DNA of 64,000 nucleotides from Bilabrum cf. latius (Eukaryota). This document shows positions 89 to 59,982 of the stretch, piece by piece; the stretch's first letter is position 1, and each line of letters begins with the position of its first letter. Both the position numbers and the translations under genes were made by a program. The notes under the pieces were generated by a model. It searched no databases. It was not told where the DNA came from and worked only from the letters and a program-made list of their open reading frames with translations. The DNA is taken from assembly GCA_965178125.1 (NCBI GenBank), contig OZ237761.1, forward strand, positions 682,001 to 746,000. The letters are read 5' to 3'.

Positions 89-1561
89 ATGAATAATCTT
101 GGCTGTGGACTTGTGCCATCGATCGCGCTGTGCGTGGTTTTGGCTCTTTGTTAGACAGGGAGGTGCAAGTACGCTACAACTGCAACAGAGCCTCCGCTGC
201 TGGTCGACAACAACACCAAGGCGATTATAGCACCCAATGTTCCACCGATACCTATCGGACTGTGGGCGATGACGCACGTGTCCCTTCCTGCAGAGGATAA
301 GCACGGCAAGAACTTGCCGCTGCTCAACCTCACAGAGGCTCGCAAGATGATTCGCAACGACTACATCGTTGGCGTGTCCGTAGAATTCAGCCTGTATGAC
401 GTGTGGCCAGACCAAAATAAACCCCCGAGCATGGATCGCGTGGCACAGCACATGCAGGTAATCGACGAGGCCTGCGAGGCCGAGGGCAAGGCTCGCGGCT
501 GCCTGCCTTTCTTCCTCAAGCCCTTCCTGTCCAACCTCCCCACGTGGATGGGCACCGTGCCCCCTCTCTCCATGGGCCGCAACCAGGTGGGCATGCGGGT
601 GCTCGGCGCTCCCACGTCGTGGCAAGGTGTCATGACGAACGCGACGGTTCCACTGTCCTGCGACCCCGCCTGGCACTCCATCCTGGATCGGGTGCTGGAC
701 GCGATCGACGCGTGGCTCGGGGAACAAGACGCGCGAGTCACCCGCGTGCCCATTGTGCATTTCCTGGGCCCACTCATGACCTCGCTGCAGATGAGGCCAG
801 GCCCACAGCCCCTGTTCGACTACCTCAGCGCCGCACCGGGCGTCAACGATACGCTGGGCTGGGGCTGGAACAAGGAGTGCCACATCGACGCGTGGGTGCA
901 GAGGGCCCGCCGGTTCGGGGACGCGAGCCGCTGGCCGCACGTGGGCAAGCGGGCCTGGGCCTTCGACTTCACCGTGCTGCCGGCCAAGTCCAACAACGCG
1001 TCGTTCGTGTTCTTCGACACGGCAGACCAGACCAGGCCCCTGGATGCGCTCGAATAGTCGCACCCGCTTGGACCCGGGGCAGTGCTCGCAAAGACAGAGT
1101 CGCTTCACGTGAACCTGGACTTCAACCACACCCACAGCACGTGCAGCGCCATCCCGCCCGCCAACGATTCCGGATCCCACGCCAGCTTCCAGGAGGCCTA
1201 CATGGACGAGCCCCTGGGCGTGCCCTACCAGTTCATTGGCAACCGCACGTGGAGGCACGGCTGGGAGGATTTCTCCCCCATCGCCATGCCAGCCCTGCCC
1301 GGCAACCGCACGGCGGTGCCCTCCATGTACCCCCTCGCGGTTCTAGGGAACAACTCGCTCTACCGGGACATCGGGCCGGGGCTCATCGACCCGGTTGTTC
1401 CCCAGGGAACACTGTGGGCGGAGGTATGGCAGTGGGAGGCAGCCGACCCGTGGGGGGCCCCTGCCTGCGTGAGCGGGGACGCCCTTGCAGCCGGCATGCG
1501 GGAGTGGAACCGGCGGCTGAGAGAGGAGTACGTTGCATCTGTGCGAGCCGCCGCGCTTTGA
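89..1561 (+). CDS. Secreted hypothetical protein (~490 aa) with 2 in-frame TAG
   Basis: ATG at 89 opens a hydrophobic signal-like segment (MNNLGCGLVPSIALCVVLALC*TGRC). It is in the same frame as track ORFs 269-1057 and 1082-1561, separated only by TAG at 152-154 and 1055-1057, and ends TGA. Many N-x-S/T sequons; family not recognised. Confidence 0.7.
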
Positions 1562-1666
1562 GGTTTTCATCTCGCACCGGAGCGCGATGGCGCTGGGGCA
1601 TCATGCCGCTGCAGGCCGGCCGCTGGCATGCTGTCCACGTGCCTCGGTACACAGGTGGGGGTCGAT

Positions 1667-2234
1667 TCAAGTCAGGGTCTTGGCGAGCTTCGCGCTGGGA
1701 GGGGCGAGCACGGTCTTCCATGCCTTGCGGCTGGCTTCGATGGCGCGATCGTGGTCGCCCTCCGCGCTCGCCAGCATGGCGAGCGCCTGCTCGGCCCACC
1801 CGTGCGCTCCTCGCCGCATGGCCCGGTCCATGCCGTAGGACTACAGGCAGTGCAGGCTGCAATCGAGCTTGCCAACTCTTGTCACCAGTGCGGAGGCTCC
1901 GCGAACCAAGGGTGCCCCAGTGGCCTCGCAACGGACCAGCGCAATCTGCGTGATGGGGCAGTAGTGCATAATGGCAAGCAAGCGGCAGGCGGCCGCTGCA
2001 CCAGCGACACCGTACTCCGACTGAACCTACTTCTGCGAGTGGTTTACCAAGTTTGAGCACTATTCTCCACCTGGGCAGTATAATCAACCTACCGACTGAA
2101 AGCTAGTTGGTCACATTCCTCACGCGAATCGACAGCGATACATCGGATGATCCGACCGCATCTGACGGTGGTGCTGGACGACCAACTCCAAAATCTAGCT
2201 AGAACACAAGGTATTTATACTTTATGCGGACCAT
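1667..2234 (-). CDS. POP5: RNase P/MRP subunit POP5 (Rpp14/Pop5 family), 2 exons, ~158 aa, 3 in-frame TAG
   Basis: Exon 1 (2234-2124) reads MVRIKYKYLVF*LDFG...SLSIR, matching the Pop5 N-terminal MVRxKxRYL motif. GT-AG intron 2123-2033. Exon 2 (2032-1667) reads K*VQSEYGVAG...IMHYCPITQIALVRC...ALVTRVG...LHCL*SYG, matching the Pop5 core pattern. Ends TGA. TAGs at 2199, 2027 and 1841. Confidence 0.85.
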
Positions 2235-2342: not shown

Positions 2343-4201
2343 ATGTCCCTGTCTGGAGGAGATAGGCCATTATTTGAAGATATCGTGGGTGCAGCTCGTT
2401 TTGTTGTTCCGACGACGAGAGACGATCCGGTAGAGGTGTTTGAATGGTCAGGCTGTGGTACCAGCTTGGCTGCCGCAGTTGGGAAGGAGCCGAGCATCTT
2501 CCGACTCAACCCAGAAACTCTAGAAGTAAGACAGTACTAGAAGCCTGATAGGACGTCATCTCGAAGCTACAGCTGCATAGCGAAGTCATTCTGTTTTTTT
2601 CCTTCGGATCCACGGCTGCCGATCCCTCGCAGCTCAAGCACCAGTACAGGCTGCGCAGCCACAAGCAGGCATTATCTTGTATGGCATGGTCGCCTGGAGG
2701 TAGTCGGCAGCTGCTTGCCACTGGCGACAAATCTGGGGTCGTGTGGCTGTGTGACATGGAAACGTTCGCCTTTGTCGGCAAAGCTGGCTTGACTGCCGGT
2801 GCAGACGAAGTCACCGCCATTGCGGTCTCGCCGAAGGCCATGCATGTAATAGTGGCAAACAAACGCGCGCAGGTAGCCATCCTGGACTTCGAGAAGCGGG
2901 TTGTCATGAAGAAGGTGCAGTGGGCGAGCATGCCGCGCGACCTTGCCTGGGCCTGGCCGGACCAGGTGCTGCTAGCCACAGGCAGGCAGGGCGATGTAGA
3001 CCAGGGGTTTCTGGAAGTGTGTTCCATCCACGAAGCACCTGCCGCATCCCCCTCCTCGTCTTCCTCCTCCTCGTCAGCAGCCGCCGCCCAAGCACCCACG
3101 CTCGTCACACTCCGGCGGCAGAGCAGCGTGGCGGTGCACGCCGGGGAGGCCCTGGGCCTGTCTGTGAACGCCTCCGGGACACTGGCCGCCACCGCAGGCA
3201 GCGACGGCGTGGCTGCGATCACCGACCTGGGCGAGATGGCCTGCGTGGCCGCCCACGACCGGGCGCCCATGGGTGTCCTCAGCGTGTCGCTGTCGCCATG
3301 CGGCCGGCTGCTGGCCTACACGGCCAAGGAATGCGACGCGGAAGTGGTGCGTGCAGCCGATGGCGCCCTCGTGAGGAGTGTCCCCTACACGAGCGGGTCG
3401 AGGTGCATCCGATTCCATCCGGGGGGCAGGGGACTTGCCGTCTCGGCCACCGGGGTGCACGTCGCTGGGCCCGGCCTGGAATCCGCGGCGGGGGCTAGAG
3501 GAATTACCCCCGCTGCGGGGTCAGAGAGCGGCGGTCCTGGTCCAGCGGGCCTCGGCTCTCGGTTCGACAGAGTGGGTGCGGCTTCTGCGGGCGAGCCCGG
3601 GCCCCCGAGGAAAGGTGAGCTGCTGTGGATGCCACTCCCAGATGTTCCGCAGACCAAATTGCGCGGCGCCGCGAGGCCCAGCAGCCTTGGGTCCGGAGCC
3701 ATGCACGGTGCAGCTGAAGATCTCGCCCTGGCCCCTCCCGAGGCAGCCACGGGCGAGGTGGTGGCAGGGGGGGAGGCGCTTGGAGGGAAGGGGTCGGGCG
3801 GCGCGGCTGGTCTGGTCGGGGGTGGGGGCATGGGGTCCTCTGGCCGGGCCGGGGACGGGGCGAGCGGAGCCCGGGGAGGGCGATGGGGAGCGGTCGCGAC
3901 GGGAGGCGGCAGCGGGGCCGGCGGGGGCCAGGTGGGAATGTCGGATGGAGCTGGGCCTGCCAGCTCGATCCCGAGCGCGAGCGCGAGCTCTGGCAGCAGG
4001 TGGGCCGGGGACCGCGGAGGCGGTGGTTACTCGCGCGGCGGGGGTCAGTACGCAGGGAGCAGCGGGGGTCAGTATGCTGGGAGTCAGTACGCCGGGTCAC
4101 GAGGTGCAGGCGGCGGGCCATACGGAGGTGGCAGGGGCTTAGGCGCCTCGGGAGGGAGCGGGCCTTACGGCGGGGATCGGTGGGGCGGCAGAGGGCGATA
4201 A
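2343..4201 (+). CDS. THOC3: WD40 protein, THO complex subunit 3 (THOC3/Tex1)-like, with Gly/RGG/YGG-rich C-terminal tail; 2 exons
   Basis: Exon 2343-2525, intron 2526-2632 (GTAAGA...TCGCAG), exon 2633-4201, ending TAA. WD blades AGSDGVAAITDLGEMACV...VLSVSLSPCGRLLA...IRFHPGGRGLA resemble the C-terminal blades of THOC3. Confidence 0.65.
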
Positions 4202-4348: not shown

Positions 4349-7300
4349 TCAAACTCCTTCGGAAGCTCCGCTGCTTTCATTCCGACCCCCGCGGAACCCA
4401 GATTCGGAACGTGAGCTCTCCATTTCTTCCGCCTCGTCCGCTCCCACGACATCCAGCTCGCTGCGGTCCTCCAGCACGTCTCCATCTCCAGAGCGAGGAA
4501 ACTGCAGGCTCAGGCCCTCCTCAAAGTCCGCCACGAGGCTTGCTCTCACTCCAACATCGCCACCACCACGGCTCTTGCCCCACGGCCCTGCATCCCTCCC
4601 AAGCGATCGGCCGGCCATTCCCACTGCCCCCGCCTCGTGCAGCGCCTCTAGGTCAAAGCCGCTCCTGGCCAGCTTTGCGCGCTCCTTCCGTCTCCCGTCT
4701 CTGGCCTCTCTCTCCCTGTAGGATTCGCCCCGCTGGACCAATCGCTGCAGCCTGCCAATTTCCTGCTAGGAGGCACCCGAGACGAATTCAAGGTGCTGCT
4801 CAAATTCGGGGGACCGAAGCTTGCTCGCGACGCTCTCCCTAGGCTTGGGGATACCCGGAACGTTGCCAGCCGACTGCGATCGGCTGGCCCTGATGGTTCC
4901 AGCCCTGCTAGGTTCAGCTCTGCCCCCTTCTGCTGCCTCGTCCAGAGTCTCCTCCACCTCGTCAAGCACCATGGATCCACCCCTGTGCTCAATAGATCCA
5001 GATGCTAAGATCGCGTGCTCGTCCACGGACCGGGACCGGAGCTATGACACCCTTCCGAGCGACCGGACCGACTGCATCTCGTTGTAGCGAACCGCAGCGC
5101 GGCTCCCTTGAGGCCTGCGAACCTCGCCTACTGCTGACGTTTCCCTGCGGACATCCGATCGCGCCATGGCTGCTGACAAAGAGAGCGGCATGGAGCTGCC
5201 ATGTGTGCCCCCGCGGTGGATTCGCGGCTCCCGGGTATCGCCAGCACGCATCACGCCAGCAGTCCCAGTCGTGGGGTTCAAGGCGCCGGCAGCACCCGCA
5301 GGGAAGCTTTGCGCATCACCTACTACGCCTTTTTTGTCGCTCCGGTCGAGCGAAGCCTCGATATCCGTGACGTTCGCAGGGTCTCGCGCACTGTCAGTCC
5401 GATCCTTTGTTGCCTCCGGCTTGGATGGCGCAGTCACATCTCGCTACGCTGCGAGTCTACGAATGACTGCAGGTCTCATGCGGTACATGCTATCCGTCAT
5501 CTGAAGAAAAGACTAGTGAGTGAACGCAGCAACTTCCTCTGCTGACGGCTGAGCCACGCTCATCTGGGCATATCGAAGCATGGTCACCGCGCTGTCGTGC
5601 GAGTCAAACGTAACGGGAGGATTTCGGGTTATGTGCTTGCCGACTCGACTGAGAGGAGCACTGCTATTGAAGATGGAGTTCCACTTCACCTTGCCTCTCA
5701 AAAAGGCGTGGGCCCGCAGGGTCGGCACTCCACCTTTCTCAACGGAGCCGATCCTCTCACTGGGCACGGCCTGCAGAAGGCCCCTAAGGAAGTCCAGAGT
5801 GGCTGGTTTGGTGTTCTTCGGCAAGCGCTCCCACCGTATGTCCCCCCGCAAAATCGCCTGGGTGACCTCGCCTCGCGACTCCCCTGCAAACGGAATGCGC
5901 CCTGCCAGGCAGCGGAACGCCAGCACGCCGAGCGACCAGAGGTCCGAATCGAACGAGGCCTTCCGCAGCATCACCTCAGGCGCGATGTATGCAGGTGTGC
6001 CTGCCACCTAGTTGATAAATGGGCGTTCTAGCCGGTACACAGGCGAATTGAAAAGGCTAACTAGCGCCGCATCTCTCCGTCGTCGTGCTGCGGGCTGCAA
6101 GGAAGTCGCGCTGCGACTCGCACTCGAGGATCCGCGGCTCCGACTATCCTGCAGATTGTCGTGGCCGTGCATGCTGCTTCGATCTTGTGACGACAGCCCA
6201 CTGTGAACTATGCCACGCGCATTCCACCCCAGCTTATAATTGCTGCTGGCTGCATAGCCGCGGCCATGACCTTCATTCCCATTCTCACTCACAGTGTCGG
6301 CTCTGTCGACATTCACCTTGCTTCCAGCTGGAGCCGCTATTGGGGAGCTCATCTGGCCCCGTATGGGACCCTATTTGCCCGAATTATCGGTGACAACTCG
6401 CTGAGCCATTCGCTCTTCCGCCGTAACTGATTCAGCCCTAGGCAAGGCAGCCAACGCGAGGGCAGAGTTCAGCTTAATTTCGTCGCCAGAGCCGCTCGAC
6501 CGATCCGCTGCCTGCAAGGTATTGCTGTCGCCACTACTACCGAGGCTTTTTGACGCAGTTTGTCGGCTAGCACGCGCAAGGGTGTCGCGCGTGTCCCTGC
6601 CGAGGTCCTCCAAGTAGGATGCAACCGCTAGGCTACTAGGATCCCCTCGAGTGGTTCTGCGCGTCTGCTGCGCGCCGTCAGATCCGGAAGCATCTCCCGC
6701 TGGTTCAAATAGATTTGCGTACAACACAGGCATAGGATGCACGCCGCAGGCACGAGCCTTCTTGAGCGCATTGCGTATCGCAGATGCTTGGACGGATTGA
6801 CCGTGCTTCCGCCCCATCGCTGCCGCATTCGCGGCCGTAGTGTTCTGATCGTTTGACGCAACTCCTGTTCGGCGCATCATGTCGCGCAGTCGCACGAGCA
6901 TCGGATCCAGCTGCACGTCGTGAAAGTGAAGGGCAGCAGCTCGTGATAGAGCAGGCTATAGCACGAGCTCCGAGTACGCGATAACAGGGGCCGACTCCGC
7001 CACGACGTCTACAGTTGAGCAGTGCTTGGCTGCAGCAGCGAAGATTCTCCGGCGGGTCTGTTCGTCGGTTCCTTTCGCGGCCACCAGGACAATATGCGGT
7101 ATGCACTTCCGGGCTACGAACGCCTCACGCCCTTTCGCCTCGACAAGGCGTGCCCCTTCAGAGCCCACGGCGGGATGTGTAGACGCCCGCATTCCACCCT
7201 GTCCGGGCCCGGCAGCCGAAGCTCGCCTAGAGTGGCTATCCATAACAGCTTCCCAGGCTCGCAGCATGGGCATAAGCTCGGCGCACAGCACACTGGCCAC

Positions 7301-10300
7301 CTCCGGACTGTCCACATCTGTTACAATGATTTCGTCGAAGAGCCAGCCCTCGCTCTTGATCGCGTCGTAGAGGTCAGGCGAGCTGTGCACCATCGAGGGC
7401 ACGATGTGGGCCGCATGATCAAGAAACCAGTATAGCGAGCGGTGCTCTCCCATGGCCCCCTGTAGCTTCTGCTGTGCGTCAACGTAGCCTTGAATGGGAT
7501 CTTCAATCGCTCCTGTGGCTTCATCGCCTTCTGCACCTACTTGCGGCGCGCTGCCCGCCTGCAGCTGCAGCTTCGAGATGACGCCATGGTACGCATCACT
7601 GGCGGAAGGTGGCAGGTCTAGCTCGGGCTCGAGAGCAGCGTTGCTCGCTTTCAGGAAGGCAGCCCTCCTCGCCTTCCGACTCATGGCTCGAAGCCTGGCC
7701 TGGGCCACGTATGCATCGTCTCGAGAGTCGAATACAATGATTGAAGCGACACGGGGTGCAGCCGCCACCTTTCCGATGGCCCAATCTTTTCCAAATGGAC
7801 CTGCTGATCGAAATTGGCTGCGTTGCGTTGCCTCATCGACGAAGGTGTCCCACGCATGGCTCGGGTCGCCGCTACCGTCGAAGACTAGTGGGCCAGCGTC
7901 AAATATTCCCTATCGAGTAGCTGAGGCCTGCATGCTCATCGACGGGGATAGCTGTCGCAAGAGCGGAACCAAACCCTACGAGGACTTCTCACACCTGTAC
8001 TCGGCAAGGAAGTTTTGCTAATGTATCGCGTGGCCCTGTCCCACGGCTGTGGCGGCGGCAGCGGCGGCGTTGGCAGCCGGCTTACGCTTCCGGGCGCGTG
8101 GATGAACCCTAGGTGCCACTGTCTGTGCCAACGGTTCTAGCGGAGTCTCTTGACCGCTGAGTATCTGGCTGAGACCGAAATCAATGAGGACGGGCTGTCC
8201 ATTCGAGGCTCGAACCATAACATTGCCCGGCTTGATGTCACGGTGCACAATTCCATTGCTGTGCAGCTCCTGAAGCGCACTAATTAGTTGTGCCACCAGC
8301 ACTCGCAAGGCATCCTCGGACATGCGCCCCCTTCCTCGTATCATCTCACCCAGTGTCGGACCGTCCACATACTCGCTGGCCAGGAAAATCCGTTTTTGGC
8401 TGGAGATACAACAAAAGAAGCGAGGCAGGCACGGGTGGATCGGTAGCTAGGACAGAACGTTGAGCTCTGCCCTCAGATGCCTTCTTCTCACTCGCTTGGC
8501 TCTGAGGATCTTGAGCGCCATGCTGGTGCCAGAGGGCAGGTGGCACGCCTGGTACACAGTGCCGAATGCTCCCTTTCCTAGCAGCCTCAGCAGCTTGAAT
8601 TCAGCGAAGGATATCGGAATATCATCCAAGTCGTCTTCCAAATTTGACTGACTCGTGGCTTTGGACGCAAGGGTCGTGCCGTCAAAGGTGAAATCGTGCG
8701 TGTCGTTGGCGTGGTGCTGGAGCAGTGCGCTGACTTTTCTGTCCCAGACAGCAGGGGTCATGAGATGCCGATTTGCTGGATCCGATGAAGCAATATCTAC
8801 CTGTTCTTCTTCACCTGTTGCAGCTGACTATCCTGTGTGCTCGGCTTTCGGGTGACTGGGGACTCCTCCAATGCAATTTTGATCTCCACGGGACCCCCCC
8901 GCGGCATGGTCTTGCGGATTTGTGTCAGTGTCGAATACTGTCAAGTCCTGCTGGGAGAGGCCAAGAGTTACATAATTCCAGGCTTGCACTCCCACCATGG
9001 ACTCCATATCGTCCTGATCCTCCACCATGGGCCTCCAAATACTGACCAGGAACTTGCTGCCGGTATCCTTCATGGTCCTAGTTGTGATCCATCGGCTCAC
9101 GGCCACTGGTCGGTCCTGAATTGCTTCAGTCCTCCCCGCTCCACTTGCTGTCGGACGTTCCAAGATGTGTTGGATGCTCTCAAGCGGCAGCACAAGCTCT
9201 CCCGGTAGATGCTTGCTCGCGCTTTTGCACAGCATGGAGAGCACAGACGGGGGGACGCCATCGCACTGTATCGCTGCTCTGCCCATCTCGGTAAACACTG
9301 CGGACGTTCGCTCCGGTACTGCTGCATACTGCGAGCTTGATGCTCCCATCGCACTTCCAGAGGCACCACCAGGGTGCGTTTCTTCGCCCGACAGCGATCT
9401 GGCCTGCTCAATTGCGCTAAACTAGGCCTGGTCCAGCCGGATGCCGGCACACGCTGCCACTGCGCTAAGCGTTGTATATCCTAGTCTTTCCCGGTACTGC
9501 ACCGCCTGCGTTACCTATTGCTCCTTCGTTCTGTTTGAGTCATGCGCTTGCGCTATCCTTGCAAGATCCTCCTGGAAAAACGAAGCGTAAGGGGTCTAGC
9601 CCAGCATCGCATCTGGAGACCGGCGCAGTATGCGGGCTGCCTCATCGCTGCCAAACAGATAGGTTGCCTCGGCGTCCATCTCGTGGGCGCACACCACCGC
9701 TGTCTCATTGTTGACCCGGACGGCGGTCATTACCTCTTTGAGCATGCGGACGAGTCGCTTGCCGTCAGCCCTGGAGCCTCCTTTTCCAACTAGGGCGGCG
9801 GAGGCTCGATCGAGCCTGGCGGTGGTAGCTGGAGGAAACGGCAAGTAGTCTGACTCCGAGTCGCTAGTTCTGTCCGACCCGGAGACAGACCCAGTGTCAT
9901 CAGCAGGCCCGGTGGGCGCGGATCCTAGGGACTACTCTCGATTGCTTCCTCTTGTATGAGCCAGGCTGCTCGCGGCCGCGATGCACAGGCGGAGCACCTG
10001 TTCGTGAGTACCAGGAGTCCACCGGTACAGATGCAACGCACCAGCAGCGTCTCTACGGTTGCCCTGCTGCCATTCCAGACGAGGCTAGGTCCCGCTCCGC
10101 AGCGTCTCGGCGTTTCCTGGCGCAGAGGCTCCAGCCCGTGCGCGGACGTCAGAAGAGCGCCGGCTGGAGTAACTGGCCGCAGACACTGTAGGCACGACGG
10201 CCGCGGCAGCCATGGCTGCATTATCACTCGTCCCCTACTTGTTATTCACGGGCAATATCGCTATGGACCCACCTGACATGAGGCGCACAAATCCAGGCGT

Positions 10301-43746: not shown

Positions 43747-43803
43747 GAAGTGGTGACCGCAAGCACGCACTGCAATAGACTGCAAAAAAAAGGTGAATGA
43801 TCC

Positions 43804-44859
43804 ATGCACACTCTTGACGCACACATGCCGAGTACAGATGCTTCAGCATCGAAAGACTACATCTCCACGATGCTTGGTGGGGCATTGAGTGGAGCCCTAG
43901 CCCGAATTCCTTGCCATCCAATCGACACAATCAAGGCAAACCTGCAAGTGTTCCAGCACAGCAAGCAAGGCGGCGGCCCAATGATGAATGCTATTCGAGA
44001 TGTGTACAGAAGACAAGGCATTTTTGGGTTCTATCGCGGCCTTGACGTTGCGCTTGTTGGCTCAATCCCCGCGGCAATGCTGTACTACTCGTCGTATGAG
44101 GCATCGCGCGATTTCCTCAAGGATCGCATCCCCGGTTTCAAAGATGTACCAGCTTTGGCGCACCTGGGAGCAGGTATGGTGGCGGAGGCGGTTAGCTGCG
44201 TGCTTTGGGTGCCAATCGATGTTTTGAAAGAGCGAAGTCAGGTGGGCACTTACAGCAACATGGTGCAGGGTGCACGCGAGGTGCTACGGCACGAAGGCCT
44301 CACAGGCTTGTACCGTGGCTACGCTGCGACAGTAGGCTCATTCGGCCCATTTAGTGCCCTGTACTTTGCGCTGTATGAGCCGTTCAAAGGGGTTGCCCAG
44401 TCGGCGCTCGGCAGGGGTGGCGAGAAGCACAAGAGCGACGAGGTCGGTTTCGTGGGAGGTTTTGCCGCATCTGCTGCAGCTGGCGGCATCGCCTCGTTTA
44501 TAACAAATCCTCTGGACCTAGCCAAGGTGCGCCTGCAGGTGCAGCGTGGGCGAGCGGCCGCTGCAGGGGAGGCTGCCACAGCCACAGGCAGCAGCCTGCA
44601 GTTCCAATACCGAGGCATGGTGCACGGCATGGGAGAGATTTGGAGGGCGGAGGGAGCGAGGGGGCTATTTAGAGGGGCGGGTGCCCGCGTGTTGTTCCAC
44701 ATCCCCATGACCGCGGTGTCGATGGCTCTCTTCGAGACGTGTCGGTCGGCGGTGCGGACTGCCATGGGGAGGGGCGGTGCAGGGAGGAACGGCCCATCCG
44801 ACGGGGTGGGCTCTTCGGCCAAGGCGGATGATGAAAGAGGGGATGGATCTCGGACGTGA
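43804..44859 (+). CDS. Mitochondrial carrier (SLC25) family protein
   Basis: Three Px[DE]xx[KR] motifs (PIDTIK, PIDVLK, PLDLAK) with GFYRG/GLYRG/GLFRG. Ends TGA. Start at 43804 or 43825. Confidence 0.93.
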   Translation: MHTLDAHMPSTDASASKDYISTMLGGALSGALARIPCHPIDTIKANLQVFQHSKQGGGPMMNAIRDVYRRQGIFGFYRGLDVALVGSIPAAMLYYSSYEASRDFLKDRIPGFKDVPALAHLGAGMVAEAVSCVLWVPIDVLKERSQVGTYSNMVQGAREVLRHEGLTGLYRGYAATVGSFGPFSALYFALYEPFKGVAQSALGRGGEKHKSDEVGFVGGFAASAAAGGIASFITNPLDLAKVRLQVQRGRAAAAGEAATATGSSLQFQYRGMVHGMGEIWRAEGARGLFRGAGARVLFHIPMTAVSMALFETCRSAVRTAMGRGGAGRNGPSDGVGSSAKADDERGDGSRT

Positions 44860-45039
44860 ATGAATGAATGAATACTGCCGTGGGAATCCCATTTTGCGAC
44901 CAAGCTGTAAGAGCTGCGATCAGTTGCTCCGATCGAATTCACCGTGGGGTATTTATGGACTTGGGAGTTTCCCTCGCGACAAAGCGAAACCGAGAGCGGC
45001 TACTCCCAAGGCCGCAGCAAGCTCAGCGTACCTTGCAGT

Positions 45040-48000: not shown

Positions 48001-48486
48001 GCACCGCCGGTTGGCCTGGAACTGGAGCTGGAGCTGGGCGGCTCTGCAAGGGCAGGAGGCGGTGGCGTGGTGGGGCAAAGTGGGGAAGGGGGCGCGGGCT
48101 CGCTGGCGCCCGGGCTTTTCTCGGGCACTCTCGAAGTGGAGTCGCCCCAGACACCCGGAGGTGGGGATAGCGGCGATGACGATGACGATGGGGCCGGGGC
48201 TGCACTCTACGCTGGCATCGCAGTGGCTGTGGTTGCCGTGGCTGCAGTCGGTGCAGGCCTGGCGTACTACCTTGGCATGTGCTCCGGGACGGCTGCCCGG
48301 GAGCAGGGGAGCAAGTACATCCCGTCATCCTCTGGCCCCGTGTCGATTCAGTCGTCCAGTCAGGAGGCGAACGGCGGGGTCCATTGTCACGACGACAAGG
48401 AGGGCATCCCTGGCTTCCAGCACCAACGGGGGAGCGACTCGATTGTTGAGAACCCGCTCAGAGAGTCTGTTAGGAACATGGTTTGA
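45040..48486 (+). CDS. Leishmanolysin/GP63-like M8 zinc metalloprotease, type I membrane, ~1148 aa, 4 in-frame TAG
   Basis: Signal peptide, propeptide HNCAHD, HEILHAIGF, SHWEQR, Met-turn, SPT-rich stalk. The frame continues across TAG 47407 and three more into the TM (ALYAGIAVAVVAVAAVGAGLAYYL). Ends TGA. Confidence 0.9.
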
Positions 48487-48757: not shown

Positions 48758-51700
48758 TCACACCAGCTCTGGGTGCAGCTCTGCGCTACCCCTCGGTCCC
48801 TTGCCCTCCGCGTAGCCTTGCTTGCGCACATCAGACCCAGACCCGCTTCTGTCATTGCCCCCCTATGGAGCCACCGTGTCGGGATGTCCCTTGCTCCCAC
48901 AGCACAGGAAGTACCCGCCCCCCACGAGGACCAGGAGACCCACCACCCCGACCACCGCCAGCACGGCTGTACCCGCCCCCTCCTGCAGACCGATCAGTGT
49001 GGGGTCACCGCTCGAGCTCTCACCCTCGAGACTGCCGCTAAACAGCCCGCTCGTCCCATCCACATCGCGCAGCACCAGCGAGACATTCCCATACACTGTG
49101 GCGTTCCGGCCTGCTAGCCCACGCATGAGATCTCCCGTAGACACGATGGCAGCGAGGGTCCTCGTCAGCGTCCAGGCCTCTGCCTCCGTACTGGCCGCCA
49201 CTGCGATTGAGACGTCCTGGGTCACGCCGTTCGAGGGCTGCTGCTGCTGCTGCGCGCGTCTTGTCCCAGAGGTGCTTGCAGCTGACGACTGGAAATCGAC
49301 AGCCACTCGGGTGCTGTCCACACCGAGCAGCAAGCCCACCGTCAGCTGCACGCCACTGGCGTCGCTCTCGCACTAGAGCCGCCGAGCGAGGCCGGACATG
49401 GTTCCGCTGAAGCCACCGACCGCGGGGTAGTCGCTGCCCTCCAGCACGCCCGTGGTACCCGCGCAGTAGGCTGCCCGCTGCTCCTGGGTGAGGGCATGCA
49501 CCACGCCGGAGCCAGGGGATGGGTCCGGGGAGCGGCTCGGAAACACAGGCGTGGGGGTCGGCGTGGGACTAGCTGGTTTAGTTGGCGTGGGGCTAGCTGA
49601 TGAAGTCGGTGTGGGGCTAGCTGATGAAGTTGGCGTGGGGCTGGCCGTCGCGGATGGGGTTATGCTTGAGGTAGGAGTGACAGAGGGCGTGGGAGTCATG
49701 CTCGGCGTTGGAGTGCCAGTTGGGGTGGTGGACGGGGACGGCGACGTGAGTCCACGGCCGCACAGCAGCTGCGGCTCGAGGCAGGTTACTGTCCCGTTGA
49801 ATCCCGGGGCAGGTTTCTCGATACCGCTCTCTCCCCTGTAGCAGACCACCTCTGCGGCAACTTCCCCGGTGGTGTTTCGAACCTCGATGGTGAGTACGGA
49901 GAACACCCCGGTGATGTTGCACGAATAGCTGTAGCACGCGGTTGAGCGGTCTGTCCCCGAGGTTGCGTCAGGCCGAATGAGGCTGGACTCGAAGCACGCA
50001 GAGTCTTCATCAGGGCCATAGTATGCCCCCATATCGCGCTGTCCAGCGGTGTCAATCCCAGTGCTGTCCGCGCACATGACAGGGCTAGCGATGATGCTGG
50101 CGTAGTCGAAGTACCACGTCCCGCCCGCCCTGGAACCGGAGCTCCCAACGATGTCGGCCATGTAGCGCGCACGCTCGGGCACCAGCGCAGTGTAGAGGGA
50201 CCCGGGAAAGGATGACATGGGGCAGGTGCCGCGCCCCCTGCGGTCGAACGTGCACGGGCCCGGCTCTGACACGGCCGCTGGCAAAAGGCAGAACATCTGC
50301 TCCCCGTGCCGAAGGCTGGACTCCGTCACCACCGTGTCATCGACGGTCAGGTTGGCCAGCTGCGCCGAGCTGTTGATGGAGAACGGGCGGTCGTACTGTA
50401 GGGAACAGCCCGCATCTGACCCCCAGTCCCTCCCTGGGCTCTCGTGCAGCGCGCTGTAGTTGCCCTTGTACCACCCGCTCGCCTCGAGCATGGCCAGAGT
50501 GACGCGGGACACGGTGGCGTAGTAGCTCAGGTCCGACGCGTCCCACTCGGAGAACAACGTGACGGACATGGTGTCCTGTGCCAGCGTGCGCGACTCCCAA
50601 TGGGAGGTCAGCTCCCCGCAGTAGCTTGGGAACATGGCCAGCTCTGGCCCGGGGAGGTCGGTGCACCCTGAGAATTCCCTCGCTGCGTCCCTCACTCCGG
50701 GCAGCACGATCCTCTGAGTGCACTGCGCGAGTCCGTTGCGGTTGGCTTGCGAGAAGTTCCTGCACTCTGGCTGGCCCCGCTCCCCGCTGTACCGCAGCAT
50801 GGTCTCGGGCAGCAGGGATGTGTTGGACACGAACAAGGGATAGCCCGAGATGCCTAGGTCACAGCTGACCGTGGTCTGGGTCGCGGGGTGCAGCCGGCTG
50901 CCGCCAGTGCCAGGGGCGCGTCTCACATACGGCTCCAGGGAATCGGGGTCGCGATAGTAGGCGAAGCTCGCGGAGCTGAATCCCAGTGCGTGCAGCAGGT
51001 GGTGCAGAACCCTCTGCCTCTGCAGGTCTCGCCTCCCGAACGTGTCCCCCGCTTGGAACCCAGGGAAGTTGTACCACGCGGCTGCCGGCCGGTCGATCTC
51101 GTCCCGGAGGCAAGCAATCGCACACTCGCCGTTAGTACCCGACCCACACGGCGAGCTGGTCATGCCGGTGACCAGCAGCACAAAGTCGGCATCGGGTGCT
51201 CCCGGGCCGTCGGCGAGGCGGGTGACGCGGGTGTAGGTGCCGTTCGAGGGGTGGAACACGGAGGATTCCGACTCGCCGAAGAAGCTTTGAGGCAGCTGCA
51301 CTTGCGGTGATCCGCACGTTCTGCTTACATCCAGCGCTTTGCAACGGCTCTCGCCGCCCTGGCCCGGCTCGTGCCACGCCGCGCACGGATACGCAAGCGA
51401 GAGGCTGCCGTCGTCGGTTCGCTTTCGGACGGCCAGCAACTCGTGCGCGCGCGAGATTGCCCATGGCAACGTTTCATTAACGAACCGATCCGTCTCCTCC
51501 GCGCCCACGTCCCACAAATTGGAGTCCTGAAGCATGAATTCTGCGTGAATCCGGAGTGGCCGCCATTCGGTCACATCATCTGCGGTCGACAGCCTACGGG
51601 AACCGCTACTTGCTACCTGCATGCGAGGCATCATCTCTGGACCACTTCCAGCTGCCATTCGAGACCGTGTCAAAGCCTTGAGCGCCTCATCGTGGCCACA

Positions 51701-51907
51701 ATCTTGCTGGAGTGCGAAAACAGAATTCGAACGGCTCGGGACACTTGTCGCGCCTCCATGGTCACTTGAGCCGCTTCTCTCGCTAGTCTAGCCAAGCACA
51801 GTAGTTGATTGTGTAGGTTTTCGGCCTGGACTGCAACTAAGGGCTCCATGGATAAATGTCACGGCGCACAGCAAGTGAAGCGCTCCGGTGGCTCGTCGGC
51901 ATACCAT
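48758..51907 (-). CDS. Second M8 leishmanolysin-like paralog with HEXXH changed to HHLLH; type I membrane, ~1049 aa, 3 in-frame TAG
   Basis: Signal [20 protein letters not shown] propeptide, [53 protein letters not shown] (identical to paralog), PT stalk and TM. TAGs at 51788, 49373 and 48863. Ends TGA. Confidence 0.88.
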
Positions 51908-52875
51908 ATCGCTCTGTCGCCCTAAATATTTATTAAATACGGTCTGCGCACAAACAACTTCAACAATCATGCAAATATACTCTAGTTTCAATGCGATATA
52001 ACCCATAAAGTCTCTTATACTAGTGTAGGGATGGCTAGAGTATGATCAGAAAAAACGTCGGTGGAAGCACCAAGGCAATCCCACAAGATATCTACAGCTA
52101 TCTGCCTCGGCTCCGGACTGCTTGCCAAACAAATACAATGTTGATATGCACGCATGCCACCTTCCAGTCTCACTGTTGCGCGGGTGACCGAGCGACGGCG
52201 GAAACGCCGATAGGTTCAATGTTCCGCCAACTTGCCGCTTGTTGTTGCTGTATTGTGTCGGCGGAACCGTTCTGCCCGTGTCTGCCCGTTTCTGCCGGTT
52301 ACTGCCAGTCTTTGCCAGTCTTTGCCAGCCAGAACGAATACTGCATTCACTCGCGACACGCCGCGGGGCTTTTTCCTTTCCGTTTCTTTTGCGCGGCGCC
52401 TAGTATCCGGAGCTATTTGGCCAAGTCAGAGCCGCGTTGCGCAAAACGCAAAGCGTTTCTAGCGTAAAATTTCGGTCTAGCAATTTTTCGTGCATTATAT
52501 TCGTGGTTTGCGCAGGTTTGAGAAGCGTCATCGAAACGATGTCGACCTATTGCGCGTGCTACAGTGTTGTGTTAGAAATTCGTTGGTATTATCCAGTCTC
52601 AATCCGGATACGCTACTGATACCAAAGAAATTACCCAGTCTCCGCCCCTCTGCTGAACGCAAAGAGGGTATGCGCGTTACCGCAAAGCAATCCATTGGCT
52701 TGGTCGTACCTTCCCAGTTGCGACCGCCAGCGTTCCCGCCAGCGGAACCCAACGAAACGATCCCGCGCTCCCACTCTGACGTCAACATCGAACCCCATAC
52801 GGCGTTAGCACAGACACACCGCTGGTGGCAGCGCAATCAGCGGCCCCTATTCGGTAGCGTGGCTGACGACACCCG

Positions 52876-55800
52876 TCATTGCGCCCCTTCCGTATCCTTG
52901 ACCCCGCTGCTCTGCACCGAGTCAAGCGGCAGAATGGAGACCATCGGATGCCCCGCCGCCCTCCGCCGGTGCGCTGCCGCCATGGCCCGCCTGGCTTTCT
53001 CCCTCACGCGCTGCTCCTCGTCCTCGCCTCTGCCCGCACCCCATGCCATGGCCCGCGAGCCCGACTGCCTCTGAGCCCCTGTCCGCCTTCCCGCGTCTGC
53101 ACACTCATCGTCATTTCCCTCCTCCTCCTCTTCCTCCGCTGCCGAGTGCATCGGACCCAGGAGTCCCACACCAGCGACAGATGAAGAGCCCATCAAATCA
53201 TCCTCCCCATCTTCGAATTCGTACCCATCTGCAAGAGCGTCTCGCGGCGTCTCTCCGTTCCAAACACGGCTGGAGGCCTTGTCCCGCGCGCGGGCGACCT
53301 CACCGGGCACGTCACGACCAGGACGCAGAAGTCCGGTGCGCCGACTGTCTTCGCTGGAGCCCAAGCCCCCTTCGGATCGGGAGTATCCAGAGGAGGAGTA
53401 GCCGCTGCGGCTTGGAATAGAGCCGGAGGGTGCCAGCGCAGGTTGGAGCTGCCCGCGCTCCATGGAGCTGCCCTGCTGCAATTGTTGCTGTTGGTCCGAG
53501 GGCCGTGGCAAGCTAGTAGTTTTGTAGGATGATGCGGATGAGTCAGTAGATGATCGGGTGGATCGCGCCACCACACGACGGTCCATCACGACCTCTTCTT
53601 CTTCTTCCTCTCCCTCTCCCTCGCCCAGCAATTCCCCCCTGTGCTACTCTCCTGCATCCTGCACAACGAAACCATCGTCCACTGCTGCAATGCCATCCAC
53701 GCCAATTGCCGTATTCATGTTTGGCCTGTGCAATTGGCTGCCCCTGCTTTTTGTCTGCTCTCGTGTCCCACTCCATGAACGGTCGCTGGATGCCCCGCCA
53801 TGCGCGCTCACTGCCGCGGCTCCCTCATTGCCACTGCCAGCAGCGATGACGACTGACTGCTTGTGCTGATGCTAGGGTCTGCTTGCAACAGTGACAGCAC
53901 GGCCATCGGCATCACTGCCATTTCCACGCTTTCTTTGATCCCTGGGATGCATATGTTCCCTGGCCACCTCGATCGAGTCGTGCAGTCCGAGCAGCATGCG
54001 GCGGGCGGGTCTATCACTAGAGTTCACGGGCGTCCCGCGAGAGTGCTTCTGCGGCTGCAACGGCCCCAAAATATTCCCCTTGCCTCCCATCGCACTGCCC
54101 CAGCTCGCTACGGTGGCTTCCTTGGCTGGGAGCGAAGCAGTTGTGGTGGAGCGCGTGGAGGACGAGGAGGGGGGCACGCCGCCGCCCCGGTTCCCTCGCC
54201 GAGGCTGGTGCAGGGCGTGGGCAGGGCCCCCCGTGCGATGGGTGGATGAATGATGCGAGGGCGGGAGGACCTATCCAGGGAACAGTCCGCCCTCGAGAAC
54301 GTCTCCGCTGAAGCCGTGGGTAATCCCAGAAAAATCGCGAGCCTCGCCCAATTCGTCCGACTCGTCGTCCTACTTATCTTCCTCGGGGCTTGTGTCAGCG
54401 TGACTTCCACGGGTATGTCTGAGGTCTTGTACGCGATCTTGACTGAGTTGAACCGCGCGATCATGGCTAATGTCTTGATCAGTCGCTCCAGGGAGCACAG
54501 ATGGATGCTCTCGGTGATTGACCGACCGTGCCATGCCTGCCTCCAGTGACGCTGCCATCGGACCACTGGGCGAACCGTCCACGGCTCCCTAGCCATCGTC
54601 GTACGAATAGGATCGGTCCAGTCCAGCGGTAATCGTCTTGACCACTTGTGAATCCTACTTCGCTTGCACAAGGCCCGAGCGAGACCGGGACACTCCGGAT
54701 GGGTGGGCAGCCACTGCCACTGGCACAGGTGCTTCCGGCCCACATTCAACGCCTGCATTCCCACGACTATTGGCGCTTCCTCGCGTGAGCTCGCCACCAC
54801 TGTGCCTCTCACTTATTCGCTCGTGGGCAGCTGCCGTGTCAGTTGACCGTGACTGGGACCGCACCGGCTGGCGGGAACTGCCGGTGGCAGAGTTTAAGCG
54901 CCTCTGAGCGTCGCCCACGGCCTTTGGGTTGCTCAGCGGCATACCCCCGCTATCCGAAGTGCGAGTAGAAGCAGATTGTCTCTTATTAAGCTTTTCACTG
55001 GCCTCCTCCTTCATGCGACTGATCGCCGCAAGGTGCTCCTGCAGCGTGCCTGCTCCAGCACCCTTGCCGCTGCTGTTGCTTCTGTCCTCGCTGTCTACCT
55101 CCAGCGCACGTGCCCCCGATTCATCAGCAAACAAGTCTGCTTCGATGCTGCCGGTCCATGCAATCTTACGGCCACTGTGCACGTCGGACCGCATCACCCC
55201 CTAGCTGGCTGCCCCAAGCGGAGAGTGACGGCAGCTGCCGCCACTGTACACAGCGCCTGATCGAGCTGAACCGCCCGCCGCCGCGCTGCGGACAGTGTCC
55301 GCTGATCTCGCGCTGAGACCCTCCAATCGACCCACGGATTGCGACGTTACGACAGCCTTCCGGCTCGCACTGAGTTTATTTCCCCCAAGAGCGCTGTCCT
55401 TGGTGTTCATGCGCGAGTCCAGTCCATCCTGCGGGCACCCGATGTGTGCTGCTGTGCCACGCCCCGAGCGAGAGTCACCATTGGTCCCATTTTCTCTTCC
55501 TTCCGCACTATCATCACTCTGGTAGCCTAGCGGGGTCACGGCTGATAGCTTGCCCGCGCGTAACCCATGTACTGCCTTGGATTCTTCCTACTCTTCGTTT
55601 TCATCGCTCGTGCAGTGCACGCACAGCCCAATCCCAAGCAGCACAAGTACTACTACCGCCGCGATTGACACTCCCACCGTCAGCCACATGGAAGTACCAT
55701 CATCCAGCCCGTCCGTCTCTACGTCTTGCCTGCCGACGCCTTCTCCGTCGTCATCGCTAGTTGGCCCCGGTGTCACCACCTAGCCGCTGGGATCCAGCAC

Positions 55801-58800
55801 CAGCGAAGCAACAACAACTTCTCGCAAGAAGGTTCCAGTCCTGCTGGTGCTAGCCAAACCTCCTGATGATGTCACGAGCTAATTAGCACCAGCCTGCAGC
55901 GCGGTACCATTCGTCAGCTGCCTGGAGATCGCCTCCTGCAGTGCACTTGCAACGCCGAACGGGTTACCTGCGTCTGTACCCGGCTGGACGGCCCCTCCCA
56001 ACGGACCGCCAAGAGGGCCATCAACGCCTCCGCTCGAGGTTGGCAGCCCGGTCGCTACCCGCACCTCTATGGCAAACTGCACAATCGCCCCCACTGCTGG
56101 ATCAGACGCGCCGGTCTGATTTCCGCTGCTCTGCATCAGGCGGTTTCCTGCAGCAGTGCCGTCAGCGACTTGTCCAGACCCAGCTGTTGCAGCAGAGGCA
56201 AGCGCTGGGGTGCCTGCAATGACAATGGCTCCAGTCTAGTAGCTCTTGCGGCCCCCATACCAGACTATCCCCTGGCTAGGACTGGTGCCGGTCGCTCGCA
56301 GGCCGAGGATCGCCAGGAGAGCTCGACCACAGGCGATCTGGATCACCCTGGAAGCAGTCACGTTAGAGATGATGCCGCCTAGAGACAGCACATCGCTGCT
56401 GAGCTGTAGATCCAGCGATCCAGTCGCGTTCGCCCGTGCCACTCGCACCGTTCCTGTGGTAGGGGCAGGGGTAGAGGTAGAGCTGGCGGAGGGCACCGCC
56501 GGGCTTTGGGACGGTGATTCGTTCAGTGATTCGTCCACCGCCTGGGGTACGGACGGCGTTGCAGATGGCGACACGGACACTGAGGGGCTTGGGGTCGGGG
56601 TATGACTGGAACTCGGGGTCGGGCTGGGGCACGTGTATGTGGCAGTCTGCACCTTGATCCATGCAAGAGAGCCAGTTGCGTTGCGCGGAAGCCCGGTGGC
56701 CGTCGGTTCGAGCGGCGCACCAATTGCGATACTCATGCTCTATTCATGCGGTGACGACATGATGAGCCCATGGATCACACCCACAGAGGCACCAAGAACG
56801 TAGGGATCTACCGAGCCGGATTGTGCGCCCTCCTGCTAGCCCTCGGGGGGGCATGCCGGTGCGGACTGAAGCCCCAACTAGGCTACTCTGAGTCGCAGCA
56901 CGCGAGGCTCAGTGCGCATGTACCCTGCACGAGTCAGCAGCAGGACATAAACTGCCGGTGATACGCCCAACGAAGGGCTCCCTCGGCCGCTGATGGCAAT
57001 CGCTGCACGGGTACTGCCGTCGATGCTGCCCAGCCTGGCAATCGCAGTACCGAGGCCTTGCCCGTACGGGACGAGTCCAGACAACTTCGTGCCGGGCACA
57101 TCCGCGTACCTAAACCTGCTGTCAATGGTCACTCGGCCGCTGGTAGAAACATTCAAATGGAGGAGGAAGCAGGCCCCGCGAGCCGCCGCCTCGGAGGGCC
57201 GCACGTAGCTTGGCACGCCCAATATCACGCGGGCGAGTGTGTCCTGCTAATGCTCACGAATCTCAGGGATCGCCACTATTGAATCAACCGCGAACCCTTG
57301 ATCGTGCGCACTGTGAGTCCTGAAGTGGCCACTGTCATTGAGGGAGTCCACGTCCAGTGACTGAACCATGCCAACCGTGCCGCTGCCATTCACCCACACG
57401 ATCCAGAGATGGTCCCTCTGGTGGAACGGACACTCAGACGCGACCTATGAAACACACCCACGACTCCGCGCGGTCACAAGCACCTCCATCTCCCCGTCCC
57501 CATCCACGTCGGCAGTGCCGACTGTCTTCCCGAACTACACCGGCGAGCCGTCTTCTACCAAGCCTGCATCGGCCAGAGCGGTCATGTTTCCCATGCTGCC
57601 CCTCAAGCTGTGGCAACCGCTGGCTGATCCATTGCGAAGCAGAGGCACCAGCAGCACATCTCCTGCATCTTCTCTGGAAGCATTCAAGACCCCTGGTATC
57701 CCAATCACAAGCGTACTTACGAGCGCACCCGCACTATCAGATGAATTGGACTGAACTCCACCGTCAGTGGCTCCAATGTAGGCAAGACTGGCTCCGGCTG
57801 TGGCACCATAGCGCAGCAGGGGGGCAGCGCAGTCGGCCCATTCGGCCACACCCGTCCCCGCCCGTGCCCTTGCTTCCTCCACAACATCTACATGCCGAGA
57901 CACGGTACCATGTCTATCGAGGAAGAGGACATGCACGGCGCCAGCAGAGCACGTGCGATTGCCGGCGCGACAAGGTGCACCCACCGCGAGCTCAAGCTCT
58001 CTGCCATCCGCATCCAGGTCACCCAGCGGCACCACGGTGCTGCCAAATGCACCCCGATCATAGCCTCTGCGATGGACCTGAGTGCCAGTCAGCGCATTGT
58101 GCAACACAGGAGCAGGTGCAGCCACCTCACGCAGCGAATCGTTCCGACCGTTCGTGGAAGCACACACACGCACTGCTGACAGCAGCGTCCCGATATCAGC
58201 TAGATCGACGCAGTCCAGAGGACGAGGGGAGCTTGAGATCGAGGGGCTGGACGACACCGCCACTGGTGAGGATGATGGGCTGGATGACACCGTCGCCGCT
58301 GGTGAGGTAGATGGGCTAGACGATATCGCCGATGTTGGGGTCGATGTTGTGGACGGCGAGGGCGAGTGTGTCGATATCCCCCCATCCGCCGACCCACTGC
58401 CACCACATGTCCAATTGAGCGTGCCCTGCAGTACGACAGACCCCCCTTGCTTCGTGTTGCCAACCGCCGTATCCTTCAGGTCCGGAATACCCACCGCAAG
58501 GCGCACTGGCTGGGACTGTGGGAGGCAGGTGCCACTCATGCTGCTGCTGCTGAGGCCGTTTGCGCCGTTAGTCGAGCTTGACCCGTTGAAGCTAGACAGG
58601 AACTCGATGTTCGAGGCTAAAGCGGCCCCGAAGCCCTCAGCAGAGGAGGGAAAGTCCGGGTGGGTGTCGCACTCGTCGCAGGCGTTGGGCAGGAGCTGGC
58701 TCGAGCTACTTGCAGATCCGTCTGAGTTCAATTGAACCAGCCACACGGTGCCATCCCCTGCATCGGGCTGGCCCACTGCCAGCACCCTGCTCACCCCGCT

Positions 58801-59982
58801 TGAGTTCCGTGCCCCGGCTCGGGGCAATCCATGCAGGAACGGGGATAGCGCATATCCGAATTGCACCGAGGAGCTCGCCCCTGGGACCATAGAGCCGTTG
58901 AGCACGGCCGCACCAGCTAGCCCCGTATGGCACGTCCTATTGGCTCCGAGTTCCCCATCGGTGTGCACCCCACATCCTGGATTCCTCCGCAGCACCGCCA
59001 CCGCCCCCGCAGCCCCACCGCTCGCCCCGCCAGCATCCTCTGCAGTCACCTTCAGGCCCACCGCCAGGTCGCTGAGACTGTCACCGTCTAGGTCGCCCAC
59101 CCACGCTACAGACAGTCCAAAAGCGCCCACATTTGCGTCAGCAGGCCAGCCAAGTACTCCCGCGATGCTGCCCGCCACACCGGCCAAAGGGGTGATCAGC
59201 TGCCAGCGGAGCACCCGAGGCTCTCGGGAGAGAGAAATCAGAAACACCGCCCCTTTGCTTTCACCAGAGGCCAGCGACGCGCGGTAGTCAGGAGCACCCA
59301 CTGCAATAATTGAAGCGCAGTCTGGTCCACAGTCCATGGTTCGGTTTGCCGAGAGACTTGCGGGCAGGGCGGCAACCGAGGCCCCAAATTGTGTCACGTC
59401 GTTTACCACATCTGCGAGCCCATCAAACCCCAACATTCCTTGCGCTAGCACATCTTGCTGTTGAGGTACTCCACCAGAATCGACTTCGATGAGATATATC
59501 GCGCCGTCAATACCTGGGAGGTATAAGCCGTGGCTATCCGCGCCAACTGCAACTGTTATTCGCCCTGATACCCCTCGCAGGTGGCCAAGGCCAGCCAAAC
59601 TGGACCCCCCATTAAAATTAAAAGGAATTGTTGCGCTTGCTGAGCCTGAATGCGTAGACAAGACGGAATGTCCGAGCAAAGCACCATCCCGCTTGGTGCG
59701 CAGCAACCAAGAGCGGCGTAACCCTGGAGAGATCGCAGAGACAGCAAAGTCTGCGGTCCCAGATTCGTCAACGTCCCCTATAAATGCAATTGCACGGTTC
59801 GGCTTCAGGGTCGTGTACCACTAGTCCACTCTATTCGCACTGTCAGAATTTGCGAATACCTCGAAGCTTTCCGGAAAGGACAGTGTTGCATTTCTGGCGT
59901 TAAGATCAAACGCAGAACCCAAGGCATACCCTATTATTCCAAAGTATGCAAGAATGAGCATGACATATCGCAGCAATCGCAT
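52876..59982 (-). CDS. FG-GAP (integrin-alpha-like) repeat type I membrane protein, ~2370 aa, with long disordered cytoplasmic tail; ~18 in-frame TAG
   Basis: Signal MRLLRYVMLILAYFGIIGYALG. Repeats such as FGxSV..GDLDGD..DLAVG and AVGAP; S/P/T stalks; TM WLTVGVSIAAVVVLVLLGIGLC near 55620-55690. One frame with only TAG interruptions to TGA at 52876. Confidence 0.85.

Follow-up and report, generated by a model that had tools for sequence, protein, structure and literature searches.

The stretch of DNA analysed here, referred to as the window (64,000 nt, G+C 61.6%), is a run of nuclear genes from a protist, in which gene packing is tight and introns are few and short. We describe 18 gene models in it (Table 1), among them PGM2, DPAGT1, POP5, two M8 peptidases and two very long open reading frames (ORFs), and consider what the triplet TAG does inside them. 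With the standard code, 14 of the 18 models would be interrupted by TAG. Within the limits of one window, UAG is almost certainly a sense codon here, with UAA and UGA as the stops, and our conclusions on stop usage cover these 18 models. The residue read at UAG is probably glutamine (Gln).

Stop triplets inside genes and at their ends

We took codon counts from 16 ORF models (17,637 codons), with exon 1 of DPAGT1 and the two-exon model of POP5 counted separately. In frame, these ORFs contain 90 TAG triplets and not a single TAA or TGA. Read off-frame, the same genes hold 292 TAG, 95 TAA and 544 TGA per 35,242 codons, and from these frequencies chance would place 146 TAG, about 48 TAA and about 272 TGA in frame. 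One further TAG lies in DPAGT1 exon 1 and four in the POP5 model (whose intron exists as a model only), which brings the total to about 95 in-frame TAGs, or roughly 0.5% of codons, found along the full length of genes that are expressed and conserved. When TAG is read through, the frame of the giant ORF stays open for 3,971 codons with 36 TAGs and neither TAA nor TGA, and that of the FG-GAP-repeat gene stays open for 2,405 codons with 19 TAGs, 18 of them after the first Met; the longest pieces that the standard code would leave of these two frames are about 320 and about 760 codons. Across the 18 models the terminators are TGA in 15 cases and TAA in 3.

An earlier note on this DNA, written from the sequence by itself, had claimed much of this, and most of its figures are reproduced: about 95 in-frame TAGs, no in-frame TAA or TGA in exons, the same tally of terminators and, for the two long TAG-rich frames, about 37 and about 18 TAGs. 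Its count of interrupted genes was one too low (13 of 18, where we count 14). The individual sites that it singled out are also where it placed them, with TAG at codon 12 of POP5 (a gene identified through a match of its exon 2 to PF01900, E = 3.8e-8), at 36142-36144 in exon 1 of DPAGT1, and at 42757-42759 in the middle of PGM2. For the TAG described as lying beside the DxD motif of a GT8 glycosyltransferase, the position holds, five codons before the DxD-type DGD in '...EYT[TAG]VMFVDGDT'; the GT8 label itself is weakly supported, the protein having no Pfam match and a glycogenin match of E ~1e-3.

The difference between TAG and the other two triplets is also seen in a coding score, which compares codon usage in frame with that off frame over 40 codons on each side of a triplet. 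The score is flat across 85 TAG sites (0.15 before, 0.14 after) and lower past every stop that was scored (14 TGA and 2 TAA); for the two TAA-ended genes it goes from 0.17 to -0.01 and from 0.08 to -0.19. The earlier claim that UAA and UGA are kept as stops can therefore be upheld for the window, since neither occurs in frame, every model has one or the other as its terminator, and past both the coding score falls. Conserved domains continue beyond TAG: domains III and IV of PGM2 are encoded 3' of its TAG, which falls between Pfam domains II and III, and the kinase domain of the giant ORF runs on past both of its TAGs, of which the first is inside the N-lobe and the second immediately ahead of GTPAYIAPE.

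The TAG codons are also clustered. Four pairs lie at most two codons apart (TAG-TAG twice and TAG-x-TAG twice), which over all ORF models amounts to 8 neighbour counts where 1.8 are expected.

In-frame TAG in sequencing reads

Twelve public runs from seven studies contain part of a 10-kb stretch of the window. We compared four of them (X1, X5, X6 and X7) over positions 36001-56000, which hold 26 in-frame TAG sites. X1 is colinear with the window at an even depth of about 12-14, which is what DNA should give, and X6, from a separate study, has zero listed differences wherever it covers the window, 7 of the 26 TAG sites included. Depth is uneven in X5 and X7, which come from two further studies and share two splice joints that are absent from X1. 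One (36320>36479) skips 158 nt bounded by GT..AG in DPAGT1, and the other (51943>52174), in the second M8 peptidase gene (M8b), skips 230 nt bounded by CT..AC, which reads GT..AG on the minus strand. Because these GT..AG joints are not found in the DNA run, we take X5 and X7 to be RNA.

All 26 TAG sites are present in the pieces of these two RNA runs (25 in X5, 13 in X7), with no other letter at any of them. The TAG of DPAGT1 and one TAG of M8b each share a contig with a splice junction, and one gap-free X5 piece (38069-40254) spans seven TAGs. Unchanged TAG in spliced RNA contigs excludes base-calling error, C-to-U or U-to-C editing, and splicing-out at the sites examined. The check for TAG in DNA and RNA reads that the earlier note had called for thus comes out in its favour, with every one of the sites in 36001-56000 unaltered.

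Sequence nearly identical to the window occurs in runs filed under four organism codes in four studies (X1-X8), which would fit a small heterotroph living in the cultures of other organisms.

In-frame TAG in relatives

The most informative relative is a metagenome contig of 2,588 nt (L001) with an orthologue of PGM2 that is 72% identical to that of the window over 599 aligned positions. Three TAGs stand in its frame. One occupies the same codon as the window's own TAG (W-TAG-E), with the frame kept on both sides; another lies opposite a CAG of the window in the well-aligned stretch AI-Q/TAG-E/D-xLDPR; the third is in an insert. Positions 1-691 of the same contig encode the C-terminus of the low-complexity gene that precedes PGM2 in the window, again with a TGA end, so gene order is conserved.

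Protein sets contain relatives as fragments. One from another run (P0123, 68 aa) is 94% identical to codons 1218-1285 of the FG-GAP protein and ends right before TAG codon 1286 of the window; it was the single match in a search of the FG-GAP region for shorter proteins. A HMMER search whose query was 1,200 residues taken from the giant ORF recovered 18 fragments at 26-72% identity. P0123 and a DPAGT1 fragment (P0124), which come from other public runs and are 94-95% identical to the window, would on their sequence derive from a close strain, a sister species or a second haplotype. DNA of the relatives was not found in the genome-contig or viral-contig collections searched. At least one distinct relative therefore also has in-frame TAG, and probably several do.

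Alternative readings of the in-frame TAGs

A first alternative is that the TAGs are never translated, being errors of sequencing or assembly, positions that editing turns into CAG, parts of introns, or marks of pseudogenes. We regard this as negligible: DNA from a second study is identical, spliced RNA from two studies has no other letter at any of the 26 sites, a single RNA piece is colinear through seven TAGs, and a relative at 72% identity has TAG at the same codon with its frame kept. Random C>T error would moreover give TAA and TGA as well, neither of which is found in frame. It is hardly more credible that UAA and UAG are both reassigned (UAR=Gln, NCBI table 6), leaving UGA as the sole stop. 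This variant is the commonest one, and TAA is rare in GC-rich DNA (338 of the 2,660 stop triplets in the six frames of the window), so that usage might in principle explain its absence from the frames. The Gln codons of the window, however, stand at CAA:CAG = 151:495, and at that ratio, applied to the 90 TAGs, a sense TAA would be expected about 27 times in frame, where the off-frame frequencies predicted about 48; none is seen in the 17,637 codons, and UAA and UAG are therefore split. Three models, furthermore, end in TAA, and the coding score falls after both of the TAA stops that were scored.

A code in which UAG is sense within genes and still terminates near some mRNA 3' ends (compare Condylostoma, karyorelict ciliates and Blastocrithidia) has more in its favour, and is a point at which our reading of UAG as an ordinary sense codon is under some strain. 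The last 100 codons of the 16 ORFs hold 2 TAGs where 8.2 are expected (P = 0.012), the last 30 hold none where 2.4 are expected, and in both the IQ-motif gene and M8b the last TAG lies 34-36 codons ahead of the TGA. The P value, on the other hand, was obtained from 16 genes and with one cut-off out of three that were tried, and the positions of TAG along genes are otherwise uniform (Kolmogorov-Smirnov p = 0.52). The tails that follow the last TAG have coding scores of 0.11-0.34, all positive (the score was trained on these tails too); the genes with conserved C-termini (PGM2, the mitochondrial carrier and DPAGT1) all end in TGA, and TAG is needed as a terminator by none of the 18 models. We treat the scarcity of TAG at 3' ends as a hint, and not a finding, that some termination at UAG may remain, and we think an ambiguous code distinctly improbable. 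That UAG is sense, as the earlier note had proposed, agrees with the frame statistics, the unedited TAG in spliced RNA, the identical DNA of the second study and the TAGs of the 72%-identical relative.

The residue encoded by UAG

Several lines of evidence point to Gln. The TAG of L001 that lies opposite a window CAG has been described above. The protein fragments of relatives presumably end where gene calling under the standard code met a TAG, and of those whose C-terminus falls inside the alignment, 4 of 12 end right before a Gln codon of the window (three CAG and one CAA). Given that Gln has a frequency of 0.0375, the P value is 7.7e-4, two of the 12 fragments having one tail in common; the remaining eight ends precede window E, E, K, K, S, T, A and R. 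In the FG-GAP protein, where TAG directly precedes an FG motif ('...PV[TAG]FGK'), the residue before FG in five other extracellular motifs is Q, A, Q, G and A. The TAG column of DPAGT1, in the poorly aligned N-terminal part, has Q as its commonest residue (15 of 78 non-gap cells). A BLOSUM62-based likelihood over all alignment classes also ranks Q first (0 nats), followed by K (-0.5), E (-5.3), R (-6.7) and S (-10.1). Leu, which is outside the ten best residues listed, scores below Ser, as do the aromatic residues. On the alignments alone, the candidates narrow to Gln and Lys, with Ser and Leu rejected.

The case for Gln has to be set against a number of observations that it does not predict. 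The margin of 0.5 nats leaves Lys nearly tied on alignments alone, and in distant homologues K stands at the PGM2 column where the window and L001 both have TAG (79 of 120), E at L001's own TAG column (82 of 120), and K also at the glycogenin TAG column and at one site in the giant kinase ORF; at the kinase TAG columns PDK1 has R and S. Among relatives of at least 40% identity, Q fills 1 of the 17 cells at six TAG sites (NDQTSTSGTVMKAAVVG), the cells being N, D, Q, T, S, T, S, G, T, V, M, K, A, A, V, V and G, for which T and S are the best fit. A neighbour-context classifier puts Q 15th of 20, with N, D and G on top for TAG; this classifier is unreliable, with the true residue in its top 3 for 13 of 23 test codons. 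Gln codons (CAG or CAA) stand beside TAG 13 times where 13.2 are expected, and beside CAA they are enriched 1.7-fold. No internal paralogue or repeat runs over a TAG site: the alignment of the two M8 peptidases (M8a and M8b) reaches no TAG, and blastn of 93-nt segments surrounding the TAG sites came back empty.

What these observations favour is a UAG that is sense and encodes some other residue, most plausibly Lys or Glu. Beyond the likelihoods and the columns of distant homologues, which have K at three TAG sites and E at one, two of the 12 fragment ends precede AAG in the window, and E is found around TAG 28 times where 18.7 are expected (1.5-fold). At the position of POP5 codon 12 we take eukaryotic POP5 proteins to have Glu; exon 1 of the gene is without a match in PDB and Pfam. 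Against Lys and Glu stand the TAG that pairs with a window CAG, the excess of fragment ends before Gln codons, and the FG motifs, which have Q in two of five cases and K or E in none. The TAG columns, in addition, mix sites dominated by K with sites dominated by E, and Q, as a residue intermediate between the two, fits such a mixture better. Finally, UAG=Gln or UAR=Gln has arisen many times, and the sections of PMC5304391 and PMC11687900 consulted make no mention of a nuclear UAG=Lys. With the FG motifs and this precedent we therefore prefer Gln over Lys. A residue other than Gln is in our view unlikely, with Lys and Glu keeping some weight, and Gln is probable, though well short of certain. 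The earlier note had likewise called UAG 'probably Gln', which remains the best reading on the TAG/CAG pair, the fragment ends and the top likelihood, with the reservation that the alignments leave Lys almost level.

Gene content and other features

Table 1. Gene models of the window in order of position, with their in-frame TAG codons and terminators.
Gene	Position	Strand	In-frame TAG	End	Remarks
ORF, no Pfam family	53..1561	+	2	TGA	502 codons
POP5/Rpp14	1667..2234	-	4, incl. codon 12	TGA	exon 1 from 2234, exon 2 1670-2059 (modelled intron)
WD40 protein, THOC3-like	2681..4201	+	none past first Met	TAA	
Giant ORF, transmembrane regions and split protein-kinase domain	4349..16264	-	36	TGA	3,971 codons
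ORF, sub-threshold IQ-motif match	16745..20779	-	8	TGA	1,344 codons
Ankyrin-repeat gene, putative model	20885..22888	+		TAA (last ORF)	several exons
Gene with weak, sub-threshold helix-hairpin-helix and DNA-polymerase-beta-thumb matches	23075..25429	-	1, in 3' piece	TGA	at least 2 ORF pieces
Glycogenin-like (GT8-like) membrane protein	25450..27294	-	2	TGA	
ADF-H/cofilin-domain protein	27472..28962	-	1	TGA	
ORF, no Pfam family	29265..33503	-	7	TAA	1,412 codons
DPAGT1 (GT4)	36055..37880	+	1	TGA	exon 1 to 36320, intron 36321-36478 (GT..AG), exon 2 from 36479
Low-complexity ORF	38091..41252	+	7, all within RNA piece 38069-40254	TGA	1,053 codons
PGM2-type phosphoglucomutase/phosphopentomutase	41410..43746	+	1	TGA	
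Mitochondrial carrier	43801..44859	+	none	TGA	
Leishmanolysin-like M8 peptidase	44911..48486	+	4	TGA	transmembrane tail
Second M8 peptidase (M8b)	48758..52344	-	3	TGA	intron 51944-52173 (GT..AG, minus), in two RNA runs
FG-GAP-repeat transmembrane protein	52876..60093	-	19 (18 past first Met), one directly before FG motif	TGA	2,405 codons
ORF, open at window end	60094..63999	-	none	TGA	at least 1,301 codons

The kinase domain of the giant ORF (5570-8650(-)) is split, with the part up to DFG at query residues 17-167 and the part from APE to the end at residues 879-999, so that the region of the activation segment contains an insert of about 710 residues. The first Met of this ORF comes only at codon 227 and transmembrane-like segments precede it; a 5' exon is probably missing from the model.

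Two other features lie between genes. Positions 34265-35952 are a perfect array, (CTGTC) x 337.6 with 100% matches, and this array accounts for all six frames being open over ~1.7-2.2 kb and for the strong AT skew of its bin (-0.336). Downstream of the FG-GAP gene, a segment some 70 bp long (52739-52808) reaches a depth of 84-113 in the DNA run, where the surroundings have about 12 (7-10x local). In three runs it also aligns with parts of several other contigs and has many loose ends, which gives it the appearance of a dispersed short repeat.

Phylogenetic placement

DPAGT1 carries most of the information on the organism. Among the best 120 matches to its exon 2, all 9 that bear an organism name are stramenopiles, with Cafeteria roenbergensis at 59% identity followed by diatoms. 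In a quick maximum-likelihood tree, built with no non-stramenopile outgroup, the window and P0124 (95%) are sister to a clade of Cafeteria and five other sequences, at a value of 99 in the Shimodaira-Hasegawa-like approximate likelihood ratio test (SH-aLRT). The PGM2 tree puts the window on a long branch and gives no placement (best match 38% identity), and the mitochondrial carrier compared with Protein Atlas gives no taxonomic signal. We provisionally place the organism, mainly on one gene, as probably a stramenopile near the bicosoecids and Cafeteria. Amoeboaphelidium was considered as a source and ruled out by its G+C content of ~40% (PMC10608142, Table 1), against 61.6% here, and its annotated proteins are absent among the matches.

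We found no report of a nuclear stop reassignment in stramenopiles in a full-text search of literature other than supplements and subscription journals, and in a 2024 review of the group 'genetic code' occurs solely in a reference title (PMC11412368). The suggestion of the earlier note that this is a non-ciliate and possibly independent case gains from both results, DPAGT1 pointing to stramenopiles beside Cafeteria and no earlier report of stop reassignment having been found there.

Discussion

The explanation that we consider probable is that of a GC-rich, intron-poor nuclear genome in which UAG is an ordinary sense codon, likeliest for Gln, and in which UGA, the main stop, and UAA terminate translation. 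As a code this is a known type (NCBI table 15), in what is apparently a new lineage. In the sections of PMC5304391 and PMC11687900 drawn on here, UAG=Gln with UAA as a stop is given for Iotanema spirale (Fornicata) and for the ciliates Protocruzia tuzeti, Hartmannula sinica and Trochilia petrani; UAG=Leu for the rhizarian exLh and for ciliate metagenome-assembled genomes from TARA; UAG=Ser for Scotinosphaera; and UAA=Lys together with UAG=Glu for one ciliate. UAR=Gln is listed, in the corresponding parts of PMC5304391, PMC6299283 and PMC11687900, for many ciliates, Hexamita, Streblomastix, ulvophycean algae and, as reported, Amoeboaphelidium protococcarum.

The window resembles the Iotanema and Protocruzia type most closely, in that UAG alone is reassigned, UAA and UGA are stops, Gln is the likeliest residue and UAG is spread over gene bodies. 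It differs from that type in lineage, apparently a stramenopile near Cafeteria and neither a metamonad nor a ciliate, and in the security of the Gln assignment, which is lower here. The window also has TGA as its dominant stop at a G+C content of 61.6%, whereas ciliates with codes of the table 15 type mostly use UAA, at 93.5-100% of aligned C-termini in the part of PMC11687900 that treats them. With the UAR=Gln codes it has in common the passage of a nuclear stop codon to Gln, but UAA is still a stop in the window, with none in frame and three genes ending in it. As in exLh and Scotinosphaera, UAG is decoupled from UAA; unlike the Ser and Leu codes, the likelihood in the window puts Ser 10 nats under Gln and Leu lower still. 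Condylostoma, the karyorelict ciliates and Blastocrithidia, as far as the sources consulted describe them, also translate in-frame stops, and the hint of TAG depletion at 3' ends is a further likeness; in the window, by contrast, only one of the three stops is affected and there is no evidence of UAG ending any of the 18 genes.

Mechanistically, and by analogy with such codes, UAG would be read by a tRNA that has CUA as its anticodon, probably descends from tRNA-Gln(CUG) and cannot pair with UAA, and eRF1 would be without recognition of UAG and would have kept that of UAA and UGA. ARAGORN and Rfam find no tRNA in the window, and eRF1 is not among its genes.

A broader reading is that this is the first nuclear stop reassignment in stramenopiles and that it is clade-wide, in largely unsampled GC-rich heterotrophs near the bicosoecids, in which UAG may keep some position-dependent 3' termination. 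Its basis is the in-frame TAGs of L001, together with relatives at 42-72% identity whose fragments break off inside conserved ORFs, and we hold it tentatively, at somewhat less than even weight.

Nuclear code changes are rare, and splits between UAG and UAA are rarer, with a handful of lineages named in the sections consulted of PMC11687900 and PMC5304391. An independent origin in a new major group would be a data point on how UAG escapes eRF1 when UAA does not. If the reading holds, the change arose where UAG would be expected to be frequent as a stop and UAA infrequent, contrary to what codon capture driven by AT pressure predicts. A GC-rich genome with TGA dominant and TAA rare among its stops is awkward for simple codon-capture models. 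In public protein sets the lineage is present as short fragments only, such as P0123 with its 68 aa ending at TAG. With 14 of 18 genes interrupted under the standard code and proteins known only as fragments, the clade is therefore nearly invisible to protein surveys and will stay so until re-annotation under the appropriate code table.

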